Shown here in pieces: positions 7,148 through 38,447 of a stretch of DNA of 41,611 nt (position 1 is its first letter; each line of letters starts with the position of its first letter). The stretch lies in the UHGV virus genome UHGV-0389583; one strand, given 5' to 3'. The position numbers were made by a program, and so were the translations under genes. The DNA is from a virus. The notes beneath the pieces are model-generated. The model was not told the DNA's origin. It was given only the letters and a program-made list of their open reading frames with translations, and ran no database searches.

Positions 7148-8113
7148 TTATATTATTTTAGCTCCTTTTTTACGGTTGCAACGCCAACAAAGAGTCTGAA
7201 GATTATCTTCTGTTGTCAGCCCACCTTTAGAAATTGGAACTATATGGTCTATCTCAAGCAGTAAATTTGGTTCTTTCTCTACGGATGCACCGCAGTTTTT
7301 GCATGTAAATTCATCACGTTCTTTAATTTTCTGTCTCAGCTTACTTGTCATGAGTGCTCGTTGGCCGGCTGCGCTTTTATTGAATTTTATTTTTTCCGAA
7401 AGAAATATCACAAAACGATTCAGATTATCAATATCCATCACAACATCGCACTGAGTAGAAGCATTTCCACCAGGGCTTACATATTTAAAAATATACTTCG
7501 GAAAATACGCAGTCCCCATATCAATTTCGTCAAACCCGAGTTCTCTTTCAAGCTTTGCTTTACCTATTTTCCTTATAAGTAAGGGAACTTCACTCTGAAT
7601 ACTTTCAATTATTCCGTTTTTTTCCGTTTTTAGTTTAGTTTTTCCCTCTTCAGCAGCTTCAAAATTATTCAGAATATTTTCGAAAGCAGACAAATTTTCT
7701 TCAGTCGCCTTTATTCCGAAATATTTACATATATACTCAAACGGCTTTTTCTTTGCATTATTGCACACAGTACGAGAGCAGTCGTGGATGTTCGGCAAAT
7801 ACTCCTGATTATTTAAGTGTTTCCGCTTGTAGTTCCATTTACTCCTATCTCTATAAAGCGCGTCGCCATAGTCTGTTTGGGTCGAAACAAGTTGTGTATG
7901 TTTCAGACGTTCGATATGACTGTTCAATTCATTGCAATCATTTATGTATGACTCTATTCTGTCTTTTATTTGTAAAAACTTTCCACTTTTATAATAAAAT
8001 AGTTCATACATTTTCCATGCAATAAAAATAAGCGCCAATACTACAAAAACAGGCCATATTTTAATTGCGACTCCAATAAGTATTAATACAATAATAAAAC
8101 CTATAAATTGCAT
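7148..8113 (-). CDS. Membrane-anchored HNH endonuclease-domain protein (two N-terminal TM helices, central unknown domain, C-terminal HNH)
   Basis: N-terminus MQFIGFIIVLILIGVAIKIWPVFVVLALIFIAW; C-terminus CKNCG...EIDHIVPISKGG...NLQTLCWRCNRKKG is a canonical HNH motif. Start moved to the ATG with RBS agagggag, because the track start is a TTG with no RBS. Confidence 0.6.
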   Translation of the reverse strand: MQFIGFIIVLILIGVAIKIWPVFVVLALIFIAWKMYELFYYKSGKFLQIKDRIESYINDCNELNSHIERLKHTQLVSTQTDYGDALYRDRSKWNYKRKHLNNQEYLPNIHDCSRTVCNNAKKKPFEYICKYFGIKATEENLSAFENILNNFEAAEEGKTKLKTEKNGIIESIQSEVPLLIRKIGKAKLERELGFDEIDMGTAYFPKYIFKYVSPGGNASTQCDVVMDIDNLNRFVIFLSEKIKFNKSAAGQRALMTSKLRQKIKERDEFTCKNCGASVEKEPNLLLEIDHIVPISKGGLTTEDNLQTLCWRCNRKKGAKII

Positions 8114-9141: not shown

Positions 9142-9918
9142 ATGAACAATTTAACAGTATTTGAACAAAACGGTCAGCTACTCACCGACAGTAGAGAAGT
9201 AGCAATGATGGTGCAGATGAACCATTCAGATTTAATAAGAAAAATCAAAGGGTACATGAAACATCTTAACGAAAGCAATTTTGCTTTGGTTGATTTCTTC
9301 ATCGAATCAGCTTACACGGATTCAAAGGGAGAAGTAAGACCATGTTACCTCTGCACAAAGAAAGGATGCGACATGATCGCCAACAAAATGACCGGAAAGA
9401 AAGGTGTCATTTTCACAGCTACATATATTGAAGCATTCGAGAAGATGAAAGATTTCATCGAAAAGGGAACACAGTACGTTGGCATTCCATTAAAAGAACA
9501 GGTGGAATCACTGGAAGTGGTAGCAAGCATGTTAAGAATGAACGATGCAAGCAAGTTGCTGATGCTGAAAGGGTTCTATGATTCTTACCATATTCCGACA
9601 GGATTCTTACCGAATTATGAGTTCAACGGCAATAGGGAAATGAAGTCACTCACAGCACTACTGAAAGAAAATAATCTCGGAATCAGTGCAGTGCAGTTCA
9701 ATAAGAAGCTTCTATCTGCCGGAATCTTGGAAGAAAAGGAACGCAAGTCCAGTAAGGGAATGGTGAAGAAGTTCAAATCACTGACGGAGAAAGGTTTGAA
9801 ATACGGCGAGAATGCAGTCAGTCCTCATAATCAGAAAGAAGTGCAGCCGTTGTATTACAGTGACACGTTTAATGAACTGTTTGATATGGTGATGACTGCT
9901 GACTTATCGGAATGGTAG
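9142..9918 (+). CDS. Phage regulatory protein, Rha-type antirepressor (N-terminal Rha domain plus C-terminal domain)
   Basis: N-terminus LTDSREVAMMVQMNHSDLIRKI resembles the Rha family signature; 258 aa. Confidence 0.55.
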   Translation: MNNLTVFEQNGQLLTDSREVAMMVQMNHSDLIRKIKGYMKHLNESNFALVDFFIESAYTDSKGEVRPCYLCTKKGCDMIANKMTGKKGVIFTATYIEAFEKMKDFIEKGTQYVGIPLKEQVESLEVVASMLRMNDASKLLMLKGFYDSYHIPTGFLPNYEFNGNREMKSLTALLKENNLGISAVQFNKKLLSAGILEEKERKSSKGMVKKFKSLTEKGLKYGENAVSPHNQKEVQPLYYSDTFNELFDMVMTADLSEW

Positions 9919-23537: not shown

Positions 23538-23660
23538 ATGGTACCAAAACGCAGATATCCGCAGATCTGCAAAACAAACAAAAATAGATTCAGCAATCTA
23601 TATTTAGTGTCAGTACCCGAGTGCGGATAGGGTAAAGGGTGTCAATAAAAGGCATCCTAC

Positions 23661-23733
23661 GGGTGTATAGCTCAATTGGTAGAGCAATCGGCTGTTAACC
23701 GATGTGTCGTAGGTTCGAGTCCTGCTATACCCG
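23661..23733 (+). tRNA. tRNA-Asn (anticodon GTT)
   Basis: Cloverleaf: acceptor GGGTGTA/TATACCC, D-stem GCTC/GAGC, anticodon stem ATCGG/CCGAT with loop CTGTTAA, T-arm GTAGG-TTCGAGT-CCTGC; 73 nt; no encoded CCA. Confidence 0.9.
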
Positions 23734-23894
23734 TTGTGGACTACTGCAAGTTACTCCTTTTTCCTATAAATTTTGATTGTGTACTTGGTTATTTTGGTTT
23801 TGTTGCTGTTATAATTCTTTCATTTTGCAGTAGTCCTAAATTCTTAGCATCCAGAGATGGGTGCTTTTATTATGCTTAAAAGGTGGTGAGTCCT

Positions 23895-29295: not shown

Positions 29296-29871
29296 ATGAA
29301 GAGCAGGATGTTTAGAATGCTGCAGTTATTTGCAGAAGAAACCGTAGATCACACAGCAGAACCTGATGCGGTGAAAGATAGTGTTAATCCGGAAAACACA
29401 TCTGATGATAGCGGGGAAGAAAAAAAGTACACAGACAAGGATGTGGATGCGATTGTAAACAAAAGATTCGCAAAATGGAAAACTGAGCAGGAACAGGCGG
29501 TAAAGAGTGCTAAGGAAGAGGCAGAAAAGCTGGCAAAAATGAATGCTGAGCAGAAACAGAATTACGAGATCGAGAAGTTGCAAAAAGAGAATGAAAAACT
29601 GAAGCAGGAGGCTGCAAAGGTTGAGCTTAGCAGAAGCGCCACAGGCATTCTTGCAGAAAAAGGAATTGAAGCAACGCAGGATGTTCTTGATTTTGTTGTA
29701 GGGAATGACGCTGATGATACGAATGCAAAAATTGATAAGCTTGTAAAAATCGTGGAATACCAGCTTAAGAAAGCCGAGATCGCCAGAGCAACCGGAACTA
29801 CACCAAAAACCATGACGAACTCAGGAAGCCAGTTGTCTGAATTTGAAAAGAGACTTGCAAAGTATAAATAA
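29296..29871 (+). CDS. Scaffolding protein (coiled-coil) with N-terminal Prp-type cleavage motif MLQLFA-EE
   Basis: Highly charged, helical, KEN/Q-rich; position upstream of the capsid gene; RBS taggaggtaaag. Confidence 0.65.
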   Translation: MKSRMFRMLQLFAEETVDHTAEPDAVKDSVNPENTSDDSGEEKKYTDKDVDAIVNKRFAKWKTEQEQAVKSAKEEAEKLAKMNAEQKQNYEIEKLQKENEKLKQEAAKVELSRSATGILAEKGIEATQDVLDFVVGNDADDTNAKIDKLVKIVEYQLKKAEIARATGTTPKTMTNSGSQLSEFEKRLAKYK

Positions 29872-29885
29872 GGAGAATGTGAAGA

Positions 29886-30802
29886 TGAAGAATAGAGAAT
29901 TTATGATGTTACAGTTATTTGCGGCAGGAGACAACAATGATATGCCGATAAGGAGCTACCAGCTTGAGTTTAAAAGTCTTTTGCAGGCAGTATTTAAAAA
30001 GATGTCCTATTTCGCGGATTTTTTCGGCGGCGAACTTGAGGCACTGGATGGAGTCAGAGAAAACGAAACAGCCTTTTATGTAAAAACATCAGACATTCCG
30101 GTTGTGGTTGGAACTGGGTACGATAAAACAGCTACGAAAGCTTTTGGAACGGGAACCGGTAATTCTAGCCGTTTCGGAGAAAGAACAGAGATTATTTACA
30201 CTAACACACCGGTTAATTACTCTTGGGGATGGAATTTCCATGAGGGGATTGACCGCCACACCGTAAATAATGATTTTGATGTTGCGGTAGCAGATCGCTT
30301 GGAACTGCAGTCTCGGGCAAAAACAAAGCAGTTTAATAAGCAGCATGGAAAATTTATTTCCACATCTGCCGGAAAAACTTTAAGCGTTGCTGATTATACG
30401 GCAGACAATGTTTTGAAGTTGTTCAATGAACTTTCTAAGTATTTCAATAATATTGAAGCAGTTGGAACGAAAAAAATTAAGGTTTGTTCCGATCTGTACA
30501 ATGCCGTTGTGGATCATCCTCTGAATACGACTGCTAAAAACTCTACTGTAAACATTGATGGCAATGAGGTTGTGAAGTTCAAGGGATTCCTTGTAGAGGA
30601 GATTCCGGATGAGCTCTTCCAGTCCAAAGAATGTGCCTATGCATATATTGCCGGAGTTGCAAAAGCATTTACTGGAATTAACACAGCGAGAACGATCGAA
30701 TCCGAGGATTTTGACGGTGTAGCTTTGCAGGGAGCTGGTAAGGCTGGAGAATTTATTCCGAATGACAACAAGAAAGCTGTAGTTAAAGTGTCGGTGGGGT
30801 AG
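29886..30802 (+). CDS. Major capsid protein with N-terminal Prp-type cleavage motif MMLQLFA-AG
   Basis: RBS aaggag 8 nt upstream of ATG 29886; 305 aa; position after the scaffold gene. Confidence 0.7.
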
Positions 30803-30873
30803 TACCCACTGACGATACCGCCTTGATTGGCAGTGGGAAGATCGGAAAGGCAAAAGTAGGAAAAGCGAAATAA
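30796..30873 (+). other. Putative programmed -1 frameshift cassette at the capsid 3' end. G_GGG run abutting the UAG stop, 5-nt spacer, stem cccactg/cagtggg with a 19-nt loop whose gcctt can pair with the downstream aaggc (H-type pseudoknot). The -1 frame is open for 24 codons: VVPTDDTALIGSGKIGKAKVGKAK
   Basis: Read directly; a second copy follows the major tail gene (34389..34466). Confidence 0.4.
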
Positions 30874-30892: not shown

Positions 30893-31222
30893 ATGGCATA
30901 TACACCAACAACATGGAGCGATGGAGACGTTATTACAGCAGAGAAACTGAATAAGTTAGAGCAGGGCGTGAAGAATGAGCAGGTTGGACCGGCAGGACCA
31001 GCAGGAGCAGTAGGACCGAAAGGAGACAAGGGAGATCCGGGCGCACAGGGACCTGCGGGACCAAGTTACACTCTTCCAGCGGCGAATAAAACAACGCTCG
31101 GCGGTGTGAAACAGATGGCTTTGATTGCAGATTTGTCGACAGAAACAGCGACTGATCTGAAAAACAAAATCAATGCGATTCTTGCGGAGATGAAAAAACA
31201 GGGGATTATGGCGAATTCGTAA
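30893..31222 (+). CDS. Collagen-like repeat protein (8 GXY triplets), candidate head decoration or head fiber protein
   Basis: GPAGPAGAVGPKGDKGDPGAQGPAGP; lies between the capsid and connector genes; RBS ggaggtag. Confidence 0.5.
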   Translation: MAYTPTTWSDGDVITAEKLNKLEQGVKNEQVGPAGPAGAVGPKGDKGDPGAQGPAGPSYTLPAANKTTLGGVKQMALIADLSTETATDLKNKINAILAEMKKQGIMANS

Positions 31223-32100: not shown

Positions 32101-33368
32101 GTATAGAATAAATTAAATTTCTACTATATATTTTAAGGATAATGTATGGTAAAATAGTGTTATCTAAGAAAGGATGAACACTATGAGAAAAACATATCTT
32201 CCTCTGTCAGATGAAGACAGAGATTACCTTAAAGCATTATCCAAAAAGAGAACCATTCAGGCACAAGTTGTGGACCGTGCCAGAATCCTTTTATATAAAG
32301 CCGATGGAATGACATTCCAGCAAATTGCTGATAAACTTGCCATTAGTACTGCAACGGTACGCCTTTGTATTTCGAAGTTTCAGAAAGGCGGTTTAGATGC
32401 TGCACTGTTTGATGTTCAGCGTCCTGGACGTCCATCGGAAATTACTGATGATGCAAAGGCATGGATGATTCATATTGCGTGTCAGAGACCGACAGAACTC
32501 GGTTATGCACAGGAATTGTGGACGTTGACCTCTCTCCACAAATACATTCAGAAACATGCAGAAGAAGCGGGATATCCAAGGCTTTCAACCGTTACCAAAC
32601 CGTATATCCAGAAATTTCTTAAGGAACAGGATATGAAACCCTTTAAAATCAAATATTACTGTGAAAAACGGGATCCTGATTTTGAATCAAAAATGCATGA
32701 GGTTCTGTTGGTTTATAAACAGATTGAAATGCAGTTTGATGAAAATGGTGATCTCATTGTTCCAGACGATTATAAACTGACGATTACGGTATCGTATGAT
32801 GAGAAGCCGGGCATTCAGGCAATCTCCAATACGGCACCGGATTTACGCCCGACATCAGAACATGGGGAAGTATATCGTGATGCAGAATACAAACGTCTGG
32901 GAACGCTCTCTTTACTGGCTGGCATTGATTTACTCACTGGAGAAGCAATTCCGTTAGTAAGTGAGACCCATAAGAGTTCTGATTTTATTGAGTTTTTAAA
33001 GATACTGGACAAAAAATATCCATCACAGGATACCATTCGGATCATCCTGGATAATCATTCTGCACATACTTCCAAAGAAACACGGCGCTTTCTGGATACT
33101 ATGCCAAAGGGACGTTTTAAATTTGTGTTTACACCAAAACATGGCTCATGGTTAAACATGATTGAAAGCTTCTTCAGCAAGATGACCAGACAGATGCTTC
33201 GAGGAATTCGTGTCAATACCAAACAGGAGTTGGAAGAACGAATTTACAAGTACTTTGACGAAGTGAATCGTGAACCCGTGGTTTATCACTGGAAGTATAA
33301 AATGGATGAAATCAGTGAAGAGGAAGCAGTATCAATTTAATATAGCAATTATTTAATATTCGTTATAC
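32101..33368 (+). mobile_element. IS630-family insertion sequence (1268 bp) flanked by a duplicated TA (32099..32100 and 33369..33370)
   Basis: Imperfect terminal inverted repeats (left gtatagaataaattaaatttctactatat versus right reverse-complement gtataacgaatattaaataattgctatat); single transposase ORF; TA target duplication characteristic of IS630/Tc1. Confidence 0.75.
32183..33340 (+). CDS. IS630-family DDE transposase
   Basis: N-terminal HTH (ARILLYKADGMTFQQIADKL), central DNHSAHT and C-terminal HGSWLNMIESFF DDE residues. Confidence 0.85.
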   Translation: MRKTYLPLSDEDRDYLKALSKKRTIQAQVVDRARILLYKADGMTFQQIADKLAISTATVRLCISKFQKGGLDAALFDVQRPGRPSEITDDAKAWMIHIACQRPTELGYAQELWTLTSLHKYIQKHAEEAGYPRLSTVTKPYIQKFLKEQDMKPFKIKYYCEKRDPDFESKMHEVLLVYKQIEMQFDENGDLIVPDDYKLTITVSYDEKPGIQAISNTAPDLRPTSEHGEVYRDAEYKRLGTLSLLAGIDLLTGEAIPLVSETHKSSDFIEFLKILDKKYPSQDTIRIILDNHSAHTSKETRRFLDTMPKGRFKFVFTPKHGSWLNMIESFFSKMTRQMLRGIRVNTKQELEERIYKYFDEVNREPVVYHWKYKMDEISEEEAVSI

Positions 33369-33469: not shown

Positions 33470-33853
33470 ATGGATCCACAGCAAGAATTATTTACAGAAT
33501 TACTTACAGAGATCAAAGCATTAGGATGTGACGTATATGATGGCTTCTTACCGCCGGATGGTACGCCGTATCCTTTTGTTTATCTCGCAGATAGCCAACA
33601 GTCAGATGATGCCAATAAAACGGCTGTGTTTGGCAATGTGTATCAGACAATTCATGTCTGGCACAACAATCCAAGACAGAGGGGAACGGTGTCAAAAATG
33701 CTGCTGGCGATCAAAAGCGCATGCAGAAGACTGGATCATACCGAAAATTTTGCATGGAATGTCCGGAATGTAAACCAGAGGATACTTCCGGATACAACAA
33801 CAAAACAACCTTTATTGCACGGGGTGTTGGAAATTGAATTTAAGTTTAGTTAA
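33470..33853 (+). CDS. Tail component / tail completion protein
   Basis: 127 aa between the head-tail joining genes and the major tail protein. Confidence 0.45.
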   Translation: MDPQQELFTELLTEIKALGCDVYDGFLPPDGTPYPFVYLADSQQSDDANKTAVFGNVYQTIHVWHNNPRQRGTVSKMLLAIKSACRRLDHTENFAWNVRNVNQRILPDTTTKQPLLHGVLEIEFKFS

Positions 33854-33870: not shown

Positions 33871-34398
33871 ATGTTTGAGACAGGATTACAGTTATTTGCA
33901 GAGGCGGTATCTGGCAAGAAAATTGTATATTTGTACCGCCTTGCAGAAAAAGCGAAACAGGAAGCAGCAAAGAATCTTGCGTTTACAACGGAGAATGGAA
34001 GAACCAAGAGTAAGGATGCAGATTCTACTGCAACGAAAGACGGTACAATCCGTACACCAGGAGCTGCGGAGACAGAAATTACAGCCACTGCGGTTTTGGC
34101 AAAAGGCGATAAATTGATCACAGAACTTGAGGACGCTATGGATTCCGATAAACTTCTTGAAATTTGGGAAGTAAACCTTGAAGAAGCAGCGGAAGCGGGT
34201 CCGAATAAATTTAAGGGAATGTATTTCCAAGGATATCTCACAGAAGTTGAGGTCACGTCTTCTGCAGATGAGAATGTGGAAGTATCCCTTACTTTTGGCA
34301 TCAACGGATCAGGTAAACGCGGAGATGTAACCGTGACAACGCAGCAGCAGGAAATCGCGAATTACGTGTTTAAGGACAGCGTGAAAGAGGGGGAATAA
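33871..34398 (+). CDS. Major tail (tube) protein with N-terminal Prp-type motif MFETGLQLFA-EA
   Basis: 175 aa immediately upstream of the tail chaperones and tape measure; RBS agaggagaaaaagc. Confidence 0.65.
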   Translation: MFETGLQLFAEAVSGKKIVYLYRLAEKAKQEAAKNLAFTTENGRTKSKDADSTATKDGTIRTPGAAETEITATAVLAKGDKLITELEDAMDSDKLLEIWEVNLEEAAEAGPNKFKGMYFQGYLTEVEVTSSADENVEVSLTFGINGSGKRGDVTVTTQQQEIANYVFKDSVKEGE

Positions 34399-34466
34399 TG
34401 CCCTCTGACGATGTAGCCTTAATCGGCAGAGGTAAAGTAGGAAAGGCAAAAGTAGGAAAAGAATAG
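34389..34466 (+). other. Second copy of the putative -1 frameshift cassette, at the major tail gene 3' end. GGGGG run, 7-nt spacer, stem ccctctg/cagagg with compensatory changes relative to copy 1, loop gcctt, downstream aaggc. The -1 frame encodes ...GIMPSDDVALIGRGKVGKAKVGKE; the ATG at 34398 overlaps the stop (TAATG)
   Basis: Read directly; peptide conserved with copy 1 and showing several synonymous third-position differences. Confidence 0.4.
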
Positions 34467-34520
34467 ATCATGTACATAGAGGGCGGCAAGACCGCTCTCT
34501 TTTTAATGGAGGAATAAAAA

Positions 34521-34919
34521 ATGATGGAATTAACAATTAACGGACAGGTGTACCAGTTTAACTTTGGAATGGGATTTTTGAGAGAGATAAACAAGCAGAC
34601 AAATGTGCCGATAGATGGAGCACCTGGAGTTAAAAAAGATGTGGGGTTCCGGTACGCGCTTATGAATTTGATGGATGGAGATCCAGAAGCTCTTGTGAAT
34701 ATTCTTGATGTTGCGAATAAAGGGCAGAACCCAAGAGTAACAAGAAATCTGCTCGATGGTTATATCGATGACGAGAATACAGATATCGATGAGCTTACAG
34801 ATACAGTAATGGGTTTCTTAAAGAGTGCGAATGCTACGAAGAGGACGACGAAAGAGTTGGTGGATGCTGTGGAGAAAGAGAAACAGAGGATAGAAGAGGA
34901 AGAAGCACGGAAAAGATAG
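34521..34919 (+). CDS. Tail assembly chaperone (gpG-like)
   Basis: Position immediately upstream of the tape measure; acidic C-terminus. Confidence 0.5.
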   Translation: MMELTINGQVYQFNFGMGFLREINKQTNVPIDGAPGVKKDVGFRYALMNLMDGDPEALVNILDVANKGQNPRVTRNLLDGYIDDENTDIDELTDTVMGFLKSANATKRTTKELVDAVEKEKQRIEEEEARKR

Positions 34920-34960: not shown

Positions 34961-35269
34961 TTGAATTGTTTTCGGTATCTGGGTTTCAAGAGCTTTGAAG
35001 AAGTGGACAGGTTGACGATCCCGGAATACACCCTGCTTATGGAAGCTGTGCAGCTAAGAGAAGTAGATAAGGACTATCGAAATCATCTGCAGGCATTCTT
35101 AAATTTTGCTGTAAAAGCAGAGAAAAAGGTTGGAAAGAATAGGTCGAAACCAGTGTATCAGAGATTCAGAAAATTCTTTGATTACGAAAAAGAAGTAGAT
35201 CGTGTGAGGAACCGAAAGCAAAAAAATGAAAGATTGGACATAATCGGCAGAATGATGAAAGGAGAGTGA
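34961..35269 (+). CDS. Tail assembly chaperone T-like segment, in the -1 frame relative to the G gene; may be expressed as a G-T frameshift fusion
   Basis: The frame is open upstream back into the G-gene 3' end; the ORF-track start is a TTG; no canonical slippery heptamer identified. Confidence 0.4.
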   Translation: MNCFRYLGFKSFEEVDRLTIPEYTLLMEAVQLREVDKDYRNHLQAFLNFAVKAEKKVGKNRSKPVYQRFRKFFDYEKEVDRVRNRKQKNERLDIIGRMMKGE

Positions 35270-35273
35270 TGGC

Positions 35274-38200
35274 ATGGCAGAAAGTTTTTCCGTGAAGGCA
35301 ATATTGTCTGCACAGGATAAGGGATTTACGTCTGCTTTCAAATCCGCAATGGGTACCGTAAGCAATTTAAAAAGCACGCTCACGAGTGGAATCGGATTTG
35401 GAATCATGGCCGGAATTGGACAAAAGGCATTTGGTGCTGTCACATCCAGTATTGGTGGTATGGTGTCAGAGTTAAATTCTTCCAGCGCTGCATGGAAAAC
35501 ATTTAATGGAAACATGTCGATGGTTGGAAAAGGTGCTGACGAGATTGCATCTGTAAAAAAGGAATTGCAAGAGTTTGCAGAAGATACGATTTATAGTGCA
35601 TCTGATATGGCGAGTACTTATGCTCAGTTGAGTGCAGTTGGGATTAAAAGCACGAACAAGCTTGTAAAGGGATTCGGAGGGCTTGCTGCGGCGGCTGAGA
35701 ATCCAAAACAGGCAATGAAGACTTTAAGCCAGCAGGCTACACAGATGGCAGCAAAGCCAACAGTTGCATGGGCGGACTTTAAACTCATGATTGAGCAGAC
35801 TCCGGCTGGTATATCAGCAGTCGCAAAAGAAATGGGTATGACTACCACGGAGCTTGTACAGAATGTGCAGGACGGGAAAATCGCGACAGAAGATTTCTTC
35901 GATGCTATCGCAAAAGTCGGCACAAATGACGCGTTTACGAAGCTTGCAACAGAATATAAGACCGTAGATCAGGCGATGGACGGGTTGACTGAAACAGTAA
36001 GTAATAAACTTGCGCCATCATTCGATGTTTTATCTGGCCGAGCAATTAAGTCCTTGGACGGGATAATCAATAAAATTGGAGATCTTGATGGAGATGCAAT
36101 CGCAGGGAAATTAACTGGATTTCTCGATAAAGCAAGTGGATACTGGAATGTTTTAAAGACAGAGGTTTCCGAAATAAAGGCTGCTTTTGGAGATGCCTTT
36201 TCTGCAATCGGAGAAGATTTGGGGAAGATTACTGGTGCATTTGGCTCCACGGAAAGCATCAGTTCTTTTGCTGGTGTAATGGACTCTGCGAGTGGGGCAT
36301 TGCAAACATTTGCCGGATTCCTGAAAGAACATTCGGAGACCATCGCGAAAGTGATATCAAAACTCCCACAGCTTTTCGTTGCATATAAAGGCTTTAAGAT
36401 TGCGAAAAGTGTTGCTCCATTTGTAGGCACATTCACGAGTGCAATTGCCGGCCTTGCCGGAGCTGGAATAAGTAAAATCGCTGGGAAATTATTCGGAATT
36501 TCCAAAGGACAGAGAGCAGTTGAGGTATCGAGCAAGACGAGCGTAAAAGGAGTAACCTCTTTAAAAGAAGGCTTTAATTCACTTCAAAAAAGTGCTGGTA
36601 TTGCCTTAATAGTAAGCGCCTTAGCTGGTTTTGCACTTGCGGTAAAACCGCTGGCAGAATTAGGAACAACCGCTGTTGCTCCGCTTGCTGCATTCGGAGT
36701 TGTTGTCGGTGGTTTAGCAATCATACTTGGAACTATGGGAAAGAAACTGCAGGAAAGTGCAGTTGGCATTGCGGTGTTTGCTGGTGCGGTATCAGCAATG
36801 GCATTATCCATGACACCTCTTGCTAAAACTGGTACAGACGGAGCTGTTGCAATGGGAACATTCGGAGTTGTTATCGGTGGTTTGGTTGCAGTATTTGCGG
36901 TATTTGGGACGGCTCTGACAGCTGCTATACCAGCGATGCTTGCTTTCGGCGCAACCATCCTTATGGTTGGTGCTGGAATGTCTCTGGCAACGCCTTTTGT
37001 TGAAGCACTAGGAAGCGTAATTCAAATACTTGGAGATGTTGTTGTTCAAGTAATAGGGGTAATCACTGGTGCTATCGTAGCTATCTTCCCAGTATTCGGA
37101 AATTTTGTGTCAACTGTTTCTGATTCAGTTAGCCAAATAGTATCAGTTGTTGGCAATACACTTGTAAATATTTTTAAAACTGCCGGGGACATCATTACAG
37201 GTGTTATTGATTCATTAGGGGATGGGTTTAAAAAAGTCACAGACGGGATTTCGAAAGTTATAGATTCAATTAGTGGTGGATTTTCCAGTGTTTTGGATTC
37301 TGTTGCTGGAATCATTGACTCAATCGGAAACTCTGCCAAAAATGCTGGCAAAGGATTCGAGAGCGTAGCTGACGGTATCAACACGATTGCTAGTCTATCT
37401 ATTGTAGATATAGCAAAGGCACTCGGATCGGTAGCTATTGGTCTCGGAGAAATTTCTGCAAAAGGAAAAGGAATTGGTACCGTTGCAGATGGACTTAACG
37501 GAGTTATTGGAGCAATTACAATTGCATCGGTGCAGATTTCAATGTTTTCAGGAACTCTTACGCAACTAAATTCAACGGCCGTTCAAATTCCTACTAGCAT
37601 GGCTATGATTAGCGGAGCATTAGCAAGTTTTTCAATTCCTGTTATAGATACTGGCAGTATCATGGCAGCATTTGCTTCTATTAGTGCAGGTGCGGAAGCG
37701 CTGGTAGCACAACTGGATTCTTCGGCCGCGAAAGCCGGGGCGCAATTTTCAAAAGCGCTTACTAACGGTATGAATTCAGCTGCTAATTCCGTGCAGCGTG
37801 GTGTTTCTAAAATTACGTCATCTGCTAATAAACTTATTTCAATGCTGACGAATATTGCAACGCAGGCAATGAGCCAATTTAATTCCGCTCTATCCTCCGG
37901 TGCAAGTAGGGCAACTTCTACGGCGAGATCAATGTCAACGTCCATTTTGTCAGCACTTAACAGCACTTCATCTGGTGCTTATTCTTGCGGCGTGTATATT
38001 GGACAGGGACTTGCAAAAGGCATGGCATCTACACTTGGATATATCAGATCAGTTGCAGCGCAAATGGCTGCGGCTGCAGATGCGGCAGTCAGGGCAAAAG
38101 CGAAAATTCACAGTCCTTCAAGAGTATTTGCCGGGCTGGGTGTCTATGTAGGAGAGGGATTTGCACTTGGAATTGAGTCGATGTCCAGAAAGGTTGCAGA

Positions 38201-38447
38201 AGCTACGCAGAGCATTGTGGAGATCCCAACATTATACACAGATATGAGGATGCGAGCTTCAGGTGCTTTGGATTCTGAACTTTCCGGTGATTATTCCTAT
38301 AACAGAAATGTTACATACACAATCGTTGTGCCGGTTGAATATAACGGCAGAGAAGCAGCGCGTGTTACGGCGGAATTTACGCAGAAAGATCTGGAAAGAC
38401 GTGAGAGCATGAAGATGAGACTGAAAGGAGAAAGAAGCCATGTATGA
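35274..38447 (+). CDS. Tail tape measure protein
   Basis: 1057 aa, Ala/Gly-rich with repeated helical and TM segments; RBS aaaggagag. Confidence 0.85.
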   Translation: MAESFSVKAILSAQDKGFTSAFKSAMGTVSNLKSTLTSGIGFGIMAGIGQKAFGAVTSSIGGMVSELNSSSAAWKTFNGNMSMVGKGADEIASVKKELQEFAEDTIYSASDMASTYAQLSAVGIKSTNKLVKGFGGLAAAAENPKQAMKTLSQQATQMAAKPTVAWADFKLMIEQTPAGISAVAKEMGMTTTELVQNVQDGKIATEDFFDAIAKVGTNDAFTKLATEYKTVDQAMDGLTETVSNKLAPSFDVLSGRAIKSLDGIINKIGDLDGDAIAGKLTGFLDKASGYWNVLKTEVSEIKAAFGDAFSAIGEDLGKITGAFGSTESISSFAGVMDSASGALQTFAGFLKEHSETIAKVISKLPQLFVAYKGFKIAKSVAPFVGTFTSAIAGLAGAGISKIAGKLFGISKGQRAVEVSSKTSVKGVTSLKEGFNSLQKSAGIALIVSALAGFALAVKPLAELGTTAVAPLAAFGVVVGGLAIILGTMGKKLQESAVGIAVFAGAVSAMALSMTPLAKTGTDGAVAMGTFGVVIGGLVAVFAVFGTALTAAIPAMLAFGATILMVGAGMSLATPFVEALGSVIQILGDVVVQVIGVITGAIVAIFPVFGNFVSTVSDSVSQIVSVVGNTLVNIFKTAGDIITGVIDSLGDGFKKVTDGISKVIDSISGGFSSVLDSVAGIIDSIGNSAKNAGKGFESVADGINTIASLSIVDIAKALGSVAIGLGEISAKGKGIGTVADGLNGVIGAITIASVQISMFSGTLTQLNSTAVQIPTSMAMISGALASFSIPVIDTGSIMAAFASISAGAEALVAQLDSSAAKAGAQFSKALTNGMNSAANSVQRGVSKITSSANKLISMLTNIATQAMSQFNSALSSGASRATSTARSMSTSILSALNSTSSGAYSCGVYIGQGLAKGMASTLGYIRSVAAQMAAAADAAVRAKAKIHSPSRVFAGLGVYVGEGFALGIESMSRKVAEATQSIVEIPTLYTDMRMRASGALDSELSGDYSYNRNVTYTIVVPVEYNGREAARVTAEFTQKDLERRESMKMRLKGERSHV

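Follow-up and report, generated by a model that had tools for sequence, protein, structure and literature searches.

The question raised by the UHGV virus genome UHGV-0389583, of which a stretch of 41,611 nucleotides was analysed (the window), is whether two of its structural genes are read beyond their own stop codons. A cassette of ~75 nt was found at the end of the major capsid gene (30796..30873) and again at the end of the major tail (tube) gene (34389-34466). Each copy was found to contain a proposed slip site at the 0-frame stop, followed by a short open reading frame (ORF) in the -1 frame and by two RNA stems, S1 and S2, inside this ORF (Table 1). Judged from the comparison of sequences, the cassette very probably directs programmed -1 ribosomal frameshifting. 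This reading is well supported because the -1 frame behaves as coding sequence, the stems covary, a peptide of this kind also follows a second signal (A_AAA_AAG), and the peptide is almost never found in frame.

The two copies were found to form a repeat pair of 73 nt with 78% identity, in which the 0-frame stops are in register. The capsid gene ended with TCG GTG GGG TAG (stop 30800-30802) and the tail tube gene with GAG GGG GAA TAA (stop 34396-34398), followed in the tail copy by a -1 frame that reads (G)IMPSDDVALIGRGKVGKAKVGKE. An earlier note on this DNA had described this end of the tail gene and its -1 peptide, and both were re-read in the sequence. The four synonymous differences that it listed between the copies (TTG/TTA, ATT/ATC, GGG/GGT and AAG/AAA) were confirmed, and the A-T to T-A swap in the stem was found to be real, with CCCACTG/CAGTGGG in the capsid copy and CCCTCTG/CAGAGGT in the tail copy, where the outermost S1 pair is missing. 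The GCCTT loop and the downstream AAGGC, which it had called retained, were present in both copies. No third place was found in the window for the cassette 17-mer when up to 3 mismatches were tolerated, the expectation from shuffles being 0.22 matches. The 17-mer GGAAAGGCAAAAGTAGG was present in more than 115 IMG/VR contigs among the matches listed, many of them with a second copy at a distance of about 2.2 kb; when the 5′ half of the cassette was used as the anchor of the scan, the number of contigs was similar. Loss of the element in relatives had been named beforehand as the sign of a chance similarity, and chance is excluded because the cassette instead recurs in these viral contigs. The two-copy cassette is confirmed as a real feature.

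The -1 frame was examined in 188 instances of the cassette, which comprised 85 distinct copies. The -1 ORF was found to contain 24-25 codons in 82 of the 85, the exceptions being two copies short of one G in the G-run and L145, in which the frame runs on to ~60 aa. Outside the stems, the mean column entropy of the -1 frame was 0.49 at position 1, 0.23 at position 2 and 0.91 at position 3, and the summed pairwise pN/pS was 0.345 in the -1 frame as against 0.81 in the 0 frame and 1.30 in the +1 frame. The peptide was found to follow the pattern P-x-D-D-x-A-L-[IV]-G-x-G-K-x-G-K-A-K-V-G-K with three x-K-[VI]-G-K pentapeptides, so that the extension consists of 23-25 aa of low-complexity Gly/Lys pentapeptide repeats and contains no Ig-like or FN3 domain of ~80-100 aa. 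A search with a concatenated 50-aa sequence as the query found the peptide in frame in just 3 tiny ORFs among 5.8 billion predicted proteins, and these resembled indel artefacts. A peptide that is so common and conserved and yet nearly absent in frame would be reachable almost only by recoding. The earlier note had taken the frame to be translated, and the pN/pS value together with the third-position variation fits this, as far as selection can tell. The pattern that it had given as telling against translation, decay of the frame while the stem persists, was found in just 2 of the 85 distinct copies, each by a 1-nt loss in the G-run. By these substitution patterns, the -1 frame is under protein-level selection.

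In L145 (~428-620), the upstream gene encodes a phrog_2729-type virion protein and is followed by a normal slip site, S1 and GCCTT/AAGGC. The -1 frame of this copy has about 60 codons (GGIIPPEDLALVNRGTDDKAVTFKVANEVEQTIVPKTK...) and encodes a longer Lys-rich extension.

The stems were described by positions counted from the T of the 0-frame stop (rel 0). S1 was found to pair rel 5-11 (CCCNCUG) with rel 31-37 (CAGNGGG). An inner helix pairs 15/27 and 16/26, together with 13/29 and 14/28, or with 17/25, depending on the subtype. S2 joins the apical GCCUU at rel 20-24 with AAGGC at rel 47-51. Among 52 distinct sequences, 99% of the S1 and S2 cells were paired, as against 34-59% when the 3′ partners were slid by 1-3 columns, and S1 alone was paired in 98% of cells. 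The centre pair of S1 occurred in four Watson-Crick types (CG 21, UA 20, GC 6 and AU 4), and the inner pair 16/26, which was never unpaired in these sequences, occurred as UA 21, CG 17 and UG 14. The hairpin S1 of the window also appears in the predicted minimum free energy (MFE) fold. RNAalifold favoured a pairing of the G-run with the CCCNC arm, which was rejected as less well supported.

Further copies were sampled through homology of the fibre gene that follows the head copy, independently of the cassette sequence. Once the divergent copies were added, compensatory changes were found at five of the seven S1 pairs, namely 5/37 (CG, UA), 8/34 (UA, CG, GC, AU), 9/33 (CG, UA), 10/32 (UA, CG) and 11/31 (GC, GU, AU, UA). 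S2 was invariant in the main clade even at two synonymous sites, the third positions of GCC and AAG being conserved in 82/82, whereas the third positions of other Lys, Gly and Ala codons vary freely. The divergent copies contained further fully complementary versions of S2 at the same positions (GCUGU/ACAGC, GCCGU/ACGGC and GCUGC/GCAGC), with compensatory changes at three of its five pairs, and S2 was fully paired in register in 100 of 112 distinct copies and in no more than 2 at any shifted register. For the stems together, pairing was far lower in the slid and in the shuffled controls. The conserved stem and the pairing of its loop with downstream sequence, as proposed in the earlier note, were thus borne out by covariation in both. 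By these compensatory changes, both stems are under selection at the RNA level.

The slip site of the 85 distinct copies was found to be GGGGGAA|TAR in 74, GGTGGGG|TAR in 9, AGAGGGG|TAG in 1 and GGAGGAA|TAA in 1. In divergent copies the last codon was GAG, GGT or GGG, and a TGA stop was also used. A G was found 5′ of the last sense codon (GAA, GAG, GGG or GGT) in every canonical copy, so that GGA or GGG would be available to the tRNA after a shift of one base back. Where the G-run is broken, in L044 (GAG GAG GAA TAA) and L155 (GTG GAG TAA), the rule of a G before the codon still holds, and a rule that demands G_GGG fails. In the main type, the 0-frame stop lies 2 nt from S1, and S1 starts 5 nt past the slip codon. 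No description of G_GAA_UAR or G_GGG_UAR as recoding sites was found in the literature searched. The phage's own tRNA was considered as an actor on the slip codons and rejected as irrelevant, being tRNA-Asn(GTT).

The cassette would be a self-contained programmed -1 frameshifting signal at the extreme end of the capsid and tail tube genes. An H-type pseudoknot, formed from 5 nt past the slip codon by S1 (6-7 bp) with its inner helix of 2-4 bp and by S2, would hold the ribosome while the tRNA slips back by one base onto GGA or GGG, after which another 23-24 codons would be read in the -1 frame. The same flexible lysine-rich C-terminal tail would thereby be added to a minority of the subunits of both capsid and tail tube. 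The slip may be that of a P-site peptidyl-tRNA with the stop in the A site; a stop directly 3′ of a slip-prone codon, the 'shifty stop' of Weiss et al., promotes such slippage, and the cassette shares this arrangement. It may also be an A-site or tandem slip, the stop being part of a canonical 5-nt spacer. With a slip on the last codon, the predicted junctions are ...AVVKVSVG-VVPTDDTALIGSGK (capsid) and ...DSVKEGE-IMPSDDVALIGR (tail tube) in the window and ...FYITYTPGE-IIPSDDVALVGR in the capsid protein of the Ruminococcus gnavus phages phiRgPS_6 or phiRM10 (MT980839, MT980841); with a slip on GGG they would instead be ...TPG-GIIPSDD... and ...KEG-GIMPSDD.... The sequences show the anatomy of the cassette, selection on its -1 frame and on both stems, and its portability; that the shift occurs, how efficient it is, which of the two modes it follows and what the tail does are inferences.

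Several observations weigh against this mechanism. The slip site is no canonical X_XXY_YYZ heptamer and is incomplete in the GTG GGG, GTG GAG and GAG GAG GAA variants, and re-pairing of Glu-tRNA on GGA would need a central G.U pair. The spacing is not uniform, being mostly 5 nt and 8 nt in the group 2 tail copies (CAG GAA TCG TAA) and in L166 (GGG TAA TAA). The MFE of single copies was no better than that of shuffled sequence (z -0.5 to -1.4), and S2 was not evident at the homologous positions in a higher-GC 'GLVGSG' clade (..TGLVGSG..). The copies are also related by descent, so that copy counts overstate the number of independent events.

A second signal was found in about 20 contigs in which the phrog_267 capsid gene ends with GTT GTA AAA AAA AAG GCC TAG. 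The A9 run contains A_AAA_AAG in frame, one codon ahead of the stop, and the CCCNCTG stem is absent (L114 ~7150-7240, L006 ~9615-9700). A_AAA_AAG, as in dnaX, is a classic bacterial -1 site. The -1 frame here reads GLDD(D)LAQVGTAKVGKAKVGK-K followed by a stop, and the fibre gene comes next. Two single contigs were found to contain a shorter run, A7 in L250, which gives an in-frame fusion, and A8 in L258; such runs might reflect errors of sequencing, true polymorphism or slippage within the homopolymer. A third arrangement was found in L361 (~1380-1440), where a phrog_10 capsid gene ends with GCA CCC TAA and a related peptide, NAPQVGLAVVGESKL with its stop, is encoded in the +1 frame, immediately 5′ of a homologous MAY-fibre gene. 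L361 is suggestive, and only suggestive, of a CCC_UAA +1 version of the same arrangement. The earlier note had held that -1 frameshifting explains both copies, and the comparative data on selection, covariation and the A_AAA_AAG variant point the same way.

In L239 and L241, the junction AAAAAAGGCCTAGATGA (..KKA and stop in the 0 frame, KKGLDE.. in the -1 frame) was found ahead of long unrelated -1 extensions, some of them coiled-coil-like, so that the recoding junction may be reused with different C-terminal modules. In L362, L363 and L367, tail-fibre-like proteins encoded immediately 5′ of related fibre genes were found to have ..PDETAILGKALLGRARLEG.. as their in-frame C-terminal end. The in-frame tails end with ..EPDETAILGKALLGRARLEGRTV in L362 (893-1504) and with ..QPDNKTTARLSLAVLGRMILGRS in L367 (105-1499), each followed by a stop, and the fibre genes behind these two are collagen-like with the related N-terminus M[TS]Y..QNF.DG..LTA..LNHME.G. 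These tails may be in-frame relatives of the -1 frame peptide, the stretch being too short to be called homologous.

An element that acts as RNA only, such as an attenuator or a hairpin for mRNA stabilisation or processing behind genes of high expression, the -1 frame then being incidental, is considered unlikely. It would account for stems that covary and that freeze synonymous sites, and for the position of the element behind the two structural genes with the highest expression and, in the tail copy, beside a terminator. It does not account for the codon periodicity of the -1 frame, its pN/pS of 0.35 as against 0.8-1.3, or the ORF length kept at 24-25 codons. The KVGK-K-stop part after S2, which has no proposed pairing, is nevertheless conserved as protein, the stemless A9 variant encodes the same peptide type, and stem covariation alters amino acids just at a permissive position (T/S/P/A with S/R).

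Other identities for the tail copy were tried and rejected. An intrinsic terminator or 3′ stabilising hairpin did not fit, since no T-run follows S1, the cassette shows codon periodicity and a separate terminator-like hairpin at 34478-34505 adjoins the cassette, outside the cassette proper. The frameshift of tail assembly chaperone genes, usually of the G/GT type, is expected in the chaperone region, here 34521-34919 / 34961-35269; the cassette lies upstream of the Phage_TAC_12 gene and belongs to the tail tube gene, and its second copy lies behind the capsid gene. Rfam at gathering threshold matched a tRNA and nothing else, and an Rfam E-value scan of 34330-34530 gave a best score of 18.5 bits against a gathering score of 50, all hits being far below the gathering scores of their families.

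The genes upstream of the cassette were found to belong to families unrelated by BLAST, at least 8 of head proteins and 2 of tail tube proteins. The head families included phrog_840, phrog_422, HK97-like proteins of 390-430 aa, phrog_29, phrog_544, phrog_10 and phrog_267, as well as a phrog_2729 virion protein on contigs of 110-160 kb. The major tail proteins were identified by phrog_238 and Phage_tail_2. Among GenBank phages, only seven records contained the cassette, each in two places, namely those of six cultured R. gnavus phages and one uncultured phage. None of the seven records annotates a frameshift at the cassette. All six cultured phages contained it behind both the capsid and the major tail gene, as in phiRgPS_6 after the capsid gene gp6 (...CCG GGG GAA TAA) and the major tail gene gp12 (...TCG GGG GAA TAG); the paper describing the R. 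gnavus phages mentions neither frameshifting nor mass spectrometry. The searched pattern was found in only seven species-representative genomes, all of Lachnospiraceae (Mediterraneibacter, Faecalimonas, Blautia and Lachnoclostridium). The motif GKAKVGK was found in no paper of the literature searched, nor was a description of the cassette found. From the range of genes that precede it, the cassette is portable between unrelated capsid genes.

The head copy was found to travel with a fibre gene. Among the capsid homologues, 32 distinct contexts contained ...SVG(E) and a stop, followed by the cassette and by a gene starting MAY[TES][PK]..W, 25 contained neither, 1 contained the cassette only and 0 the fibre gene only. 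The capsids with neither include relatives with 94-96% identity that end with ...TITG and a stop, followed directly by the next head gene, and more distant capsid homologues likewise lack both. The fibre gene, of 66-146 aa with collagen-like repeats, was present 3′ of the head copy in all capsid families, with L032 as the one exception, and the cassette was present 5′ of the fibre gene in 54 of 56 distinct metagenomic fibre contexts. Between the window and the R. gnavus phages, DNA similarity was found to start exactly at the cassette and to continue through the fibre gene, the capsid genes being unrelated.

The tail copy was followed in an unbiased sample of tail tube homologues. The close relatives contained a canonical cassette and a second group a diverged one. 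The group 2 cassettes (L176-L214, for example L176 ~2010-2100) end with CAG GAA TCG TAA; S1 is compensated to CCCUCUA/UAGAGGG, GCCUU/AAGGC is kept, and the peptide has diverged in its second half (..GRGKKSKAKVDKQ or ..SRGRICKAKNG, each with a stop). The tail homologue of L215 showed a precise absence of the cassette, its stop being followed directly by the terminator, and tail tube homologues with 71-76% identity also lacked it. A head copy without a tail copy was found in 20 of 45 informative cases and a tail copy without a detected head copy in 4 of 37, one of which, L109, had a divergent head copy missed by the regular expression. In the window lineage, a canonical tail cassette was present in 18 of 30 contigs with the head module and in 1 of 8 without it (Fisher p = 0.04, uncorrected for phylogeny); 7 of these 8 carry the group 2 tail type. 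A confinement of diverged tail cassettes to contigs without the head/fibre module was considered and rejected, these counts showing a tendency only.

Since the cassette comes and goes with the fibre gene, and the head copy always ends shortly 5′ of the ribosome binding site (RBS) and ATG of the fibre gene, the -1 ORF might mainly deliver ribosomes 10-25 nt before the fibre start, as a fixed-ratio coupling with the peptide as a by-product. This is considered very unlikely, as the tail copy ends before a terminator with no fibre gene downstream, a strong GGAGG RBS of its own already serves the fibre gene, and such coupling would not need the amino-acid conservation of the peptide.

Only in the tail copy could the peptide start on its own. 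As stated in the earlier note, the ATG at 34398 overlaps the 0-frame stop (TAATG) with the G-rich GAGGGGG 4 nt upstream, which could serve as a Shine-Dalgarno sequence for a free 22-aa peptide made by termination-reinitiation or coupling, and the closest tail relatives contain the same ATG. This ATG was found to be limited to that one tail sub-lineage, the corresponding codon being ATT, ATC, GCA, ACA, GTA, GAA or GTT in other copies, and the absence of a start codon from the -1 frame of the capsid copy was verified for ATG, GTG and TTG. The capsid copy and most others have ATA or GTA before that codon and a -1 stop a few codons upstream, and their peptide is equally conserved; the A_AAA_AAG variant likewise has no start codon. 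With no conserved start codon, independent initiation cannot account for the cassette family, and reinitiation, which the note had also rejected, is considered extremely unlikely. Slippage of RNA polymerase that adds one base on the G-run or A-run, for which the A9 run is long enough and of which the A7 and A8 contigs might be a trace, is just as improbable, since the main type has only 4-5 G, functional-looking copies contain GGTGGAG or GGAGGAA, and a conserved pseudoknot 5 nt downstream is a hallmark of ribosomal slippage.

With programmed -1 frameshifting as the preferred reading, the tail that it would add can be considered. Because of the tight genetic linkage to the fibre gene, the most economical reading, proposed tentatively, is that of a docking tag by which the small collagen-like fibre would attach to the exterior of capsomers and tail rings; frameshifting would limit the number of tagged subunits and so set the stoichiometry. 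In tail tube proteins, extensions made by frameshifting lie on the exterior of the tube. C-termini of HK97-fold capsid proteins can project from the hexon centre, and a 17-residue extension of phage Jabs forms a turret (10.64898/2026.07.24.740622). It is possible, though doubtful, that the cassette and the fibre gene together form a decoration module that grafts its own docking peptide onto any capsid protein upstream, the second copy serving the tail tube. If this is true, one small fibre could decorate unrelated capsids and tails without a co-evolving binding surface. Against an anchor stand the free mixing of peptide subtypes with subtypes of the fibre N-terminus, the presence of both cassettes without an adjacent fibre gene in L032, and the canonical tail cassette of L122, which has neither a head cassette nor a fibre gene. 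As a fallback, the tail might act alone as a polycationic surface tail, for example in weak binding to anionic wall polymers or mucin, by analogy with what has been proposed for Ig-like domains.

The slip site of phage A2 is a C_CCA_AAA heptamer with a stem-loop. Recoding at the 3′ ends of capsid and tail genes comprises -1 shifts in both genes in A2, +1 shifts in both in PSA, a -1 shift in the capsid gene and a +1 shift in the tail gene in A118 and A500, and gene 10B in T3 and T7 (PMC5009743). The A2 products gp5A/gp5B (major head) and gp10A/gp10B (major tail) were reported by Garcia 2004 and Rodriguez 2005, as cited in PMC5009743. The cassette resembles A2 in a -1 shift at the extreme 3′ end of the major head and major tail genes that would give minor C-terminally extended forms. 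It differs in that the A2 extension is an Ig-like domain (PMC5009743) whereas the cassette encodes 23-24 aa of pentapeptide repeats, is homologous at both genes and contains its stimulatory RNA inside the extension ORF.

The recoding of cps and tsh in the Listeria phages PSA, A118 and A500 is attributed in PMC5009743 to Zimmer 2003 and Dorscht 2009. The capsid and tail shaft genes are likewise recoded at their 3′ ends there, and a stop beside the slip codon (CCC_UGA) and a pseudoknot stimulate the shift; the CCC_TAA of L361 with its +1-frame peptide matches this +1 site of the Listeria tail gene (PMC5009743). In contrast to the cassette, the Listeria tail genes shift by +1, on a Pro codon, the signal at the tail gene is no copy of that at the capsid gene, and the extension is a second, longer product from each gene. 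T7 and T3 (10A/10B) share with the cassette a -1 shift near the end of the capsid gene that gives a minor species, and the T7 extension is also not Ig-like (PMC5009743); their slip site and stimulator are different, and they have neither a tail counterpart nor portability between capsid families. The A9 variant, for its part, shares A_AAA_AAG with dnaX.

For ORF10 (major head) of phiEf11, an extension of 21 aa was proposed, by a -1 shift on AAAAAAA before TAG with a downstream stem-loop; it was called speculative by its authors, and mass spectrometry found no extension peptides (PMC5221750). Like the cassette, this shift would lengthen a head protein only a little (~21 aa) from a -1 site beside the stop; no shared capsid/tail cassette is evident there. 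Ig-like domains delivered to virion proteins by frameshifting (Fraser et al. 2006, as cited in PMC5009743) are likewise mobile C-terminal modules found in or out of frame behind unrelated structural genes, and are expressed by frameshifting when out of frame. The cassette, in contrast, encodes no folded domain and instead a low-complexity tail of 24 aa with its own recoding signal, and travels with a fibre gene. What is new relative to known recoding is one homologous unit of ~75 nt that is present at both genes and is mobile among capsid genes together with a fibre gene.

To research on recoding, the cassette brings a small pseudoknot that doubles as coding sequence, has been replicated by nature, comes with many natural compensatory variants and is joined to an unusual G_GRR_stop slip site. 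On the structural side, the prediction is that Lachnospiraceae phages make minor, extended forms of their capsid and tail tube proteins, which current annotation and cryo-EM models of these phages miss. The cassette may also offer a route by which a fibre gene moves between phages and still attaches. The cassette is common in human-gut phages and is carried by six cultured R. gnavus phages, hence it is directly testable.

Table 1. Features of the two cassette copies and of the surrounding genes in the window (nucleotide positions; RNA stems are given in DNA letters).
Feature	Position	Strand	Details
Proposed slip site, tail copy	34389..34398	+	G GGG GAA TAA
-1 frame extension ORF, tail copy	34395..34466	+	IMPSDDVALIGRGKVGKAKVGKE (23 codons) and TAG 34464-34466
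Hairpin S1, tail copy	34401..34433	+	CCCTCTG 34401-34407 with CAGAGGT 34427-34433, 6 bp
Inner helix of S1, tail copy	34409-34412 with 34422-34425		CGAT with ATCG
Pseudoknot stem S2, tail copy	34416..34447	+	apical GCCTT 34416-34420 with AAGGC 34443-34447
Proposed slip site, capsid copy	30796-30802	+	G GGG TAG
-1 frame ORF, capsid copy	30799-30870	+	VVPTDDTALIGSGKIGKAKVGKAK; TAA stop 30871-30873
S1, capsid copy	30805-30811 with 30831-30837		CCCACTG with CAGTGGG
S2, capsid copy	30820-30824 with 30847-30851		GCCTT with AAGGC
tRNA-Asn(GTT)	23660-23734		in the phage region, just 5′ of the packaging genes
Scaffold	29296-29871	+	DUF4355
Major capsid protein	29885..30802	+	PHROG phrog_840 major head protein 8.2e-119; ATG 29885 the likely start
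Small collagen-like 'head fibre' (MAYTPTTW...)	30893..31222	+	Pfam Phage_head_fibr 2.7e-10, Collagen
IS630-type transposase	32174-33340		Pfam DDE_3 and HTH domains
Tail completion protein	33470-33853	+	Pfam
Major tail (tube) protein, 175 aa	33871..34398	+	Pfam Phage_tail_2 2.1e-15; PHROG phrog_238 major tail protein 1.2e-51
Intrinsic-terminator-like hairpin and T-run	34478..34505	+	12 nt 3′ of the extension ORF, before the chaperone gene
Tail assembly chaperone	34521-34919	+	Phage_TAC_12
ORF after the chaperone gene, 102 aa	34961-35269	+
Long ORF, 1057 aa, 3′ of the chaperone genes	35274-38447	+	tape measure by position only

By Pfam and PHROG, the window was found to contain the + strand structural module of a siphophage or prophage. 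A ..LQLFA motif was found to be common to the N-termini of the scaffold (MKSRMFRMLQLFAE; 29296-29340), the capsid protein (MKNREFMMLQLFAA; 29885-29927) and the tail tube protein (MFETGLQLFAE; 33871-33904), and at the DNA level these sites form the repeat family D1. The motif resembles the leader of ribosomal protein L27, which is cleaved by the host Prp protease and is mimicked by the capsid and scaffold proteins of S. aureus phage 80alpha; to our knowledge, an L27-like leader on a tail tube protein would be unusual. The transposase, of the IS630 family, was found to sit among the head-tail joining genes. Phage MT835606 was 95.8% identical to the window over just 77% of the query, in 3 pieces, which is consistent with an insertion of the IS element specific to the window copy.

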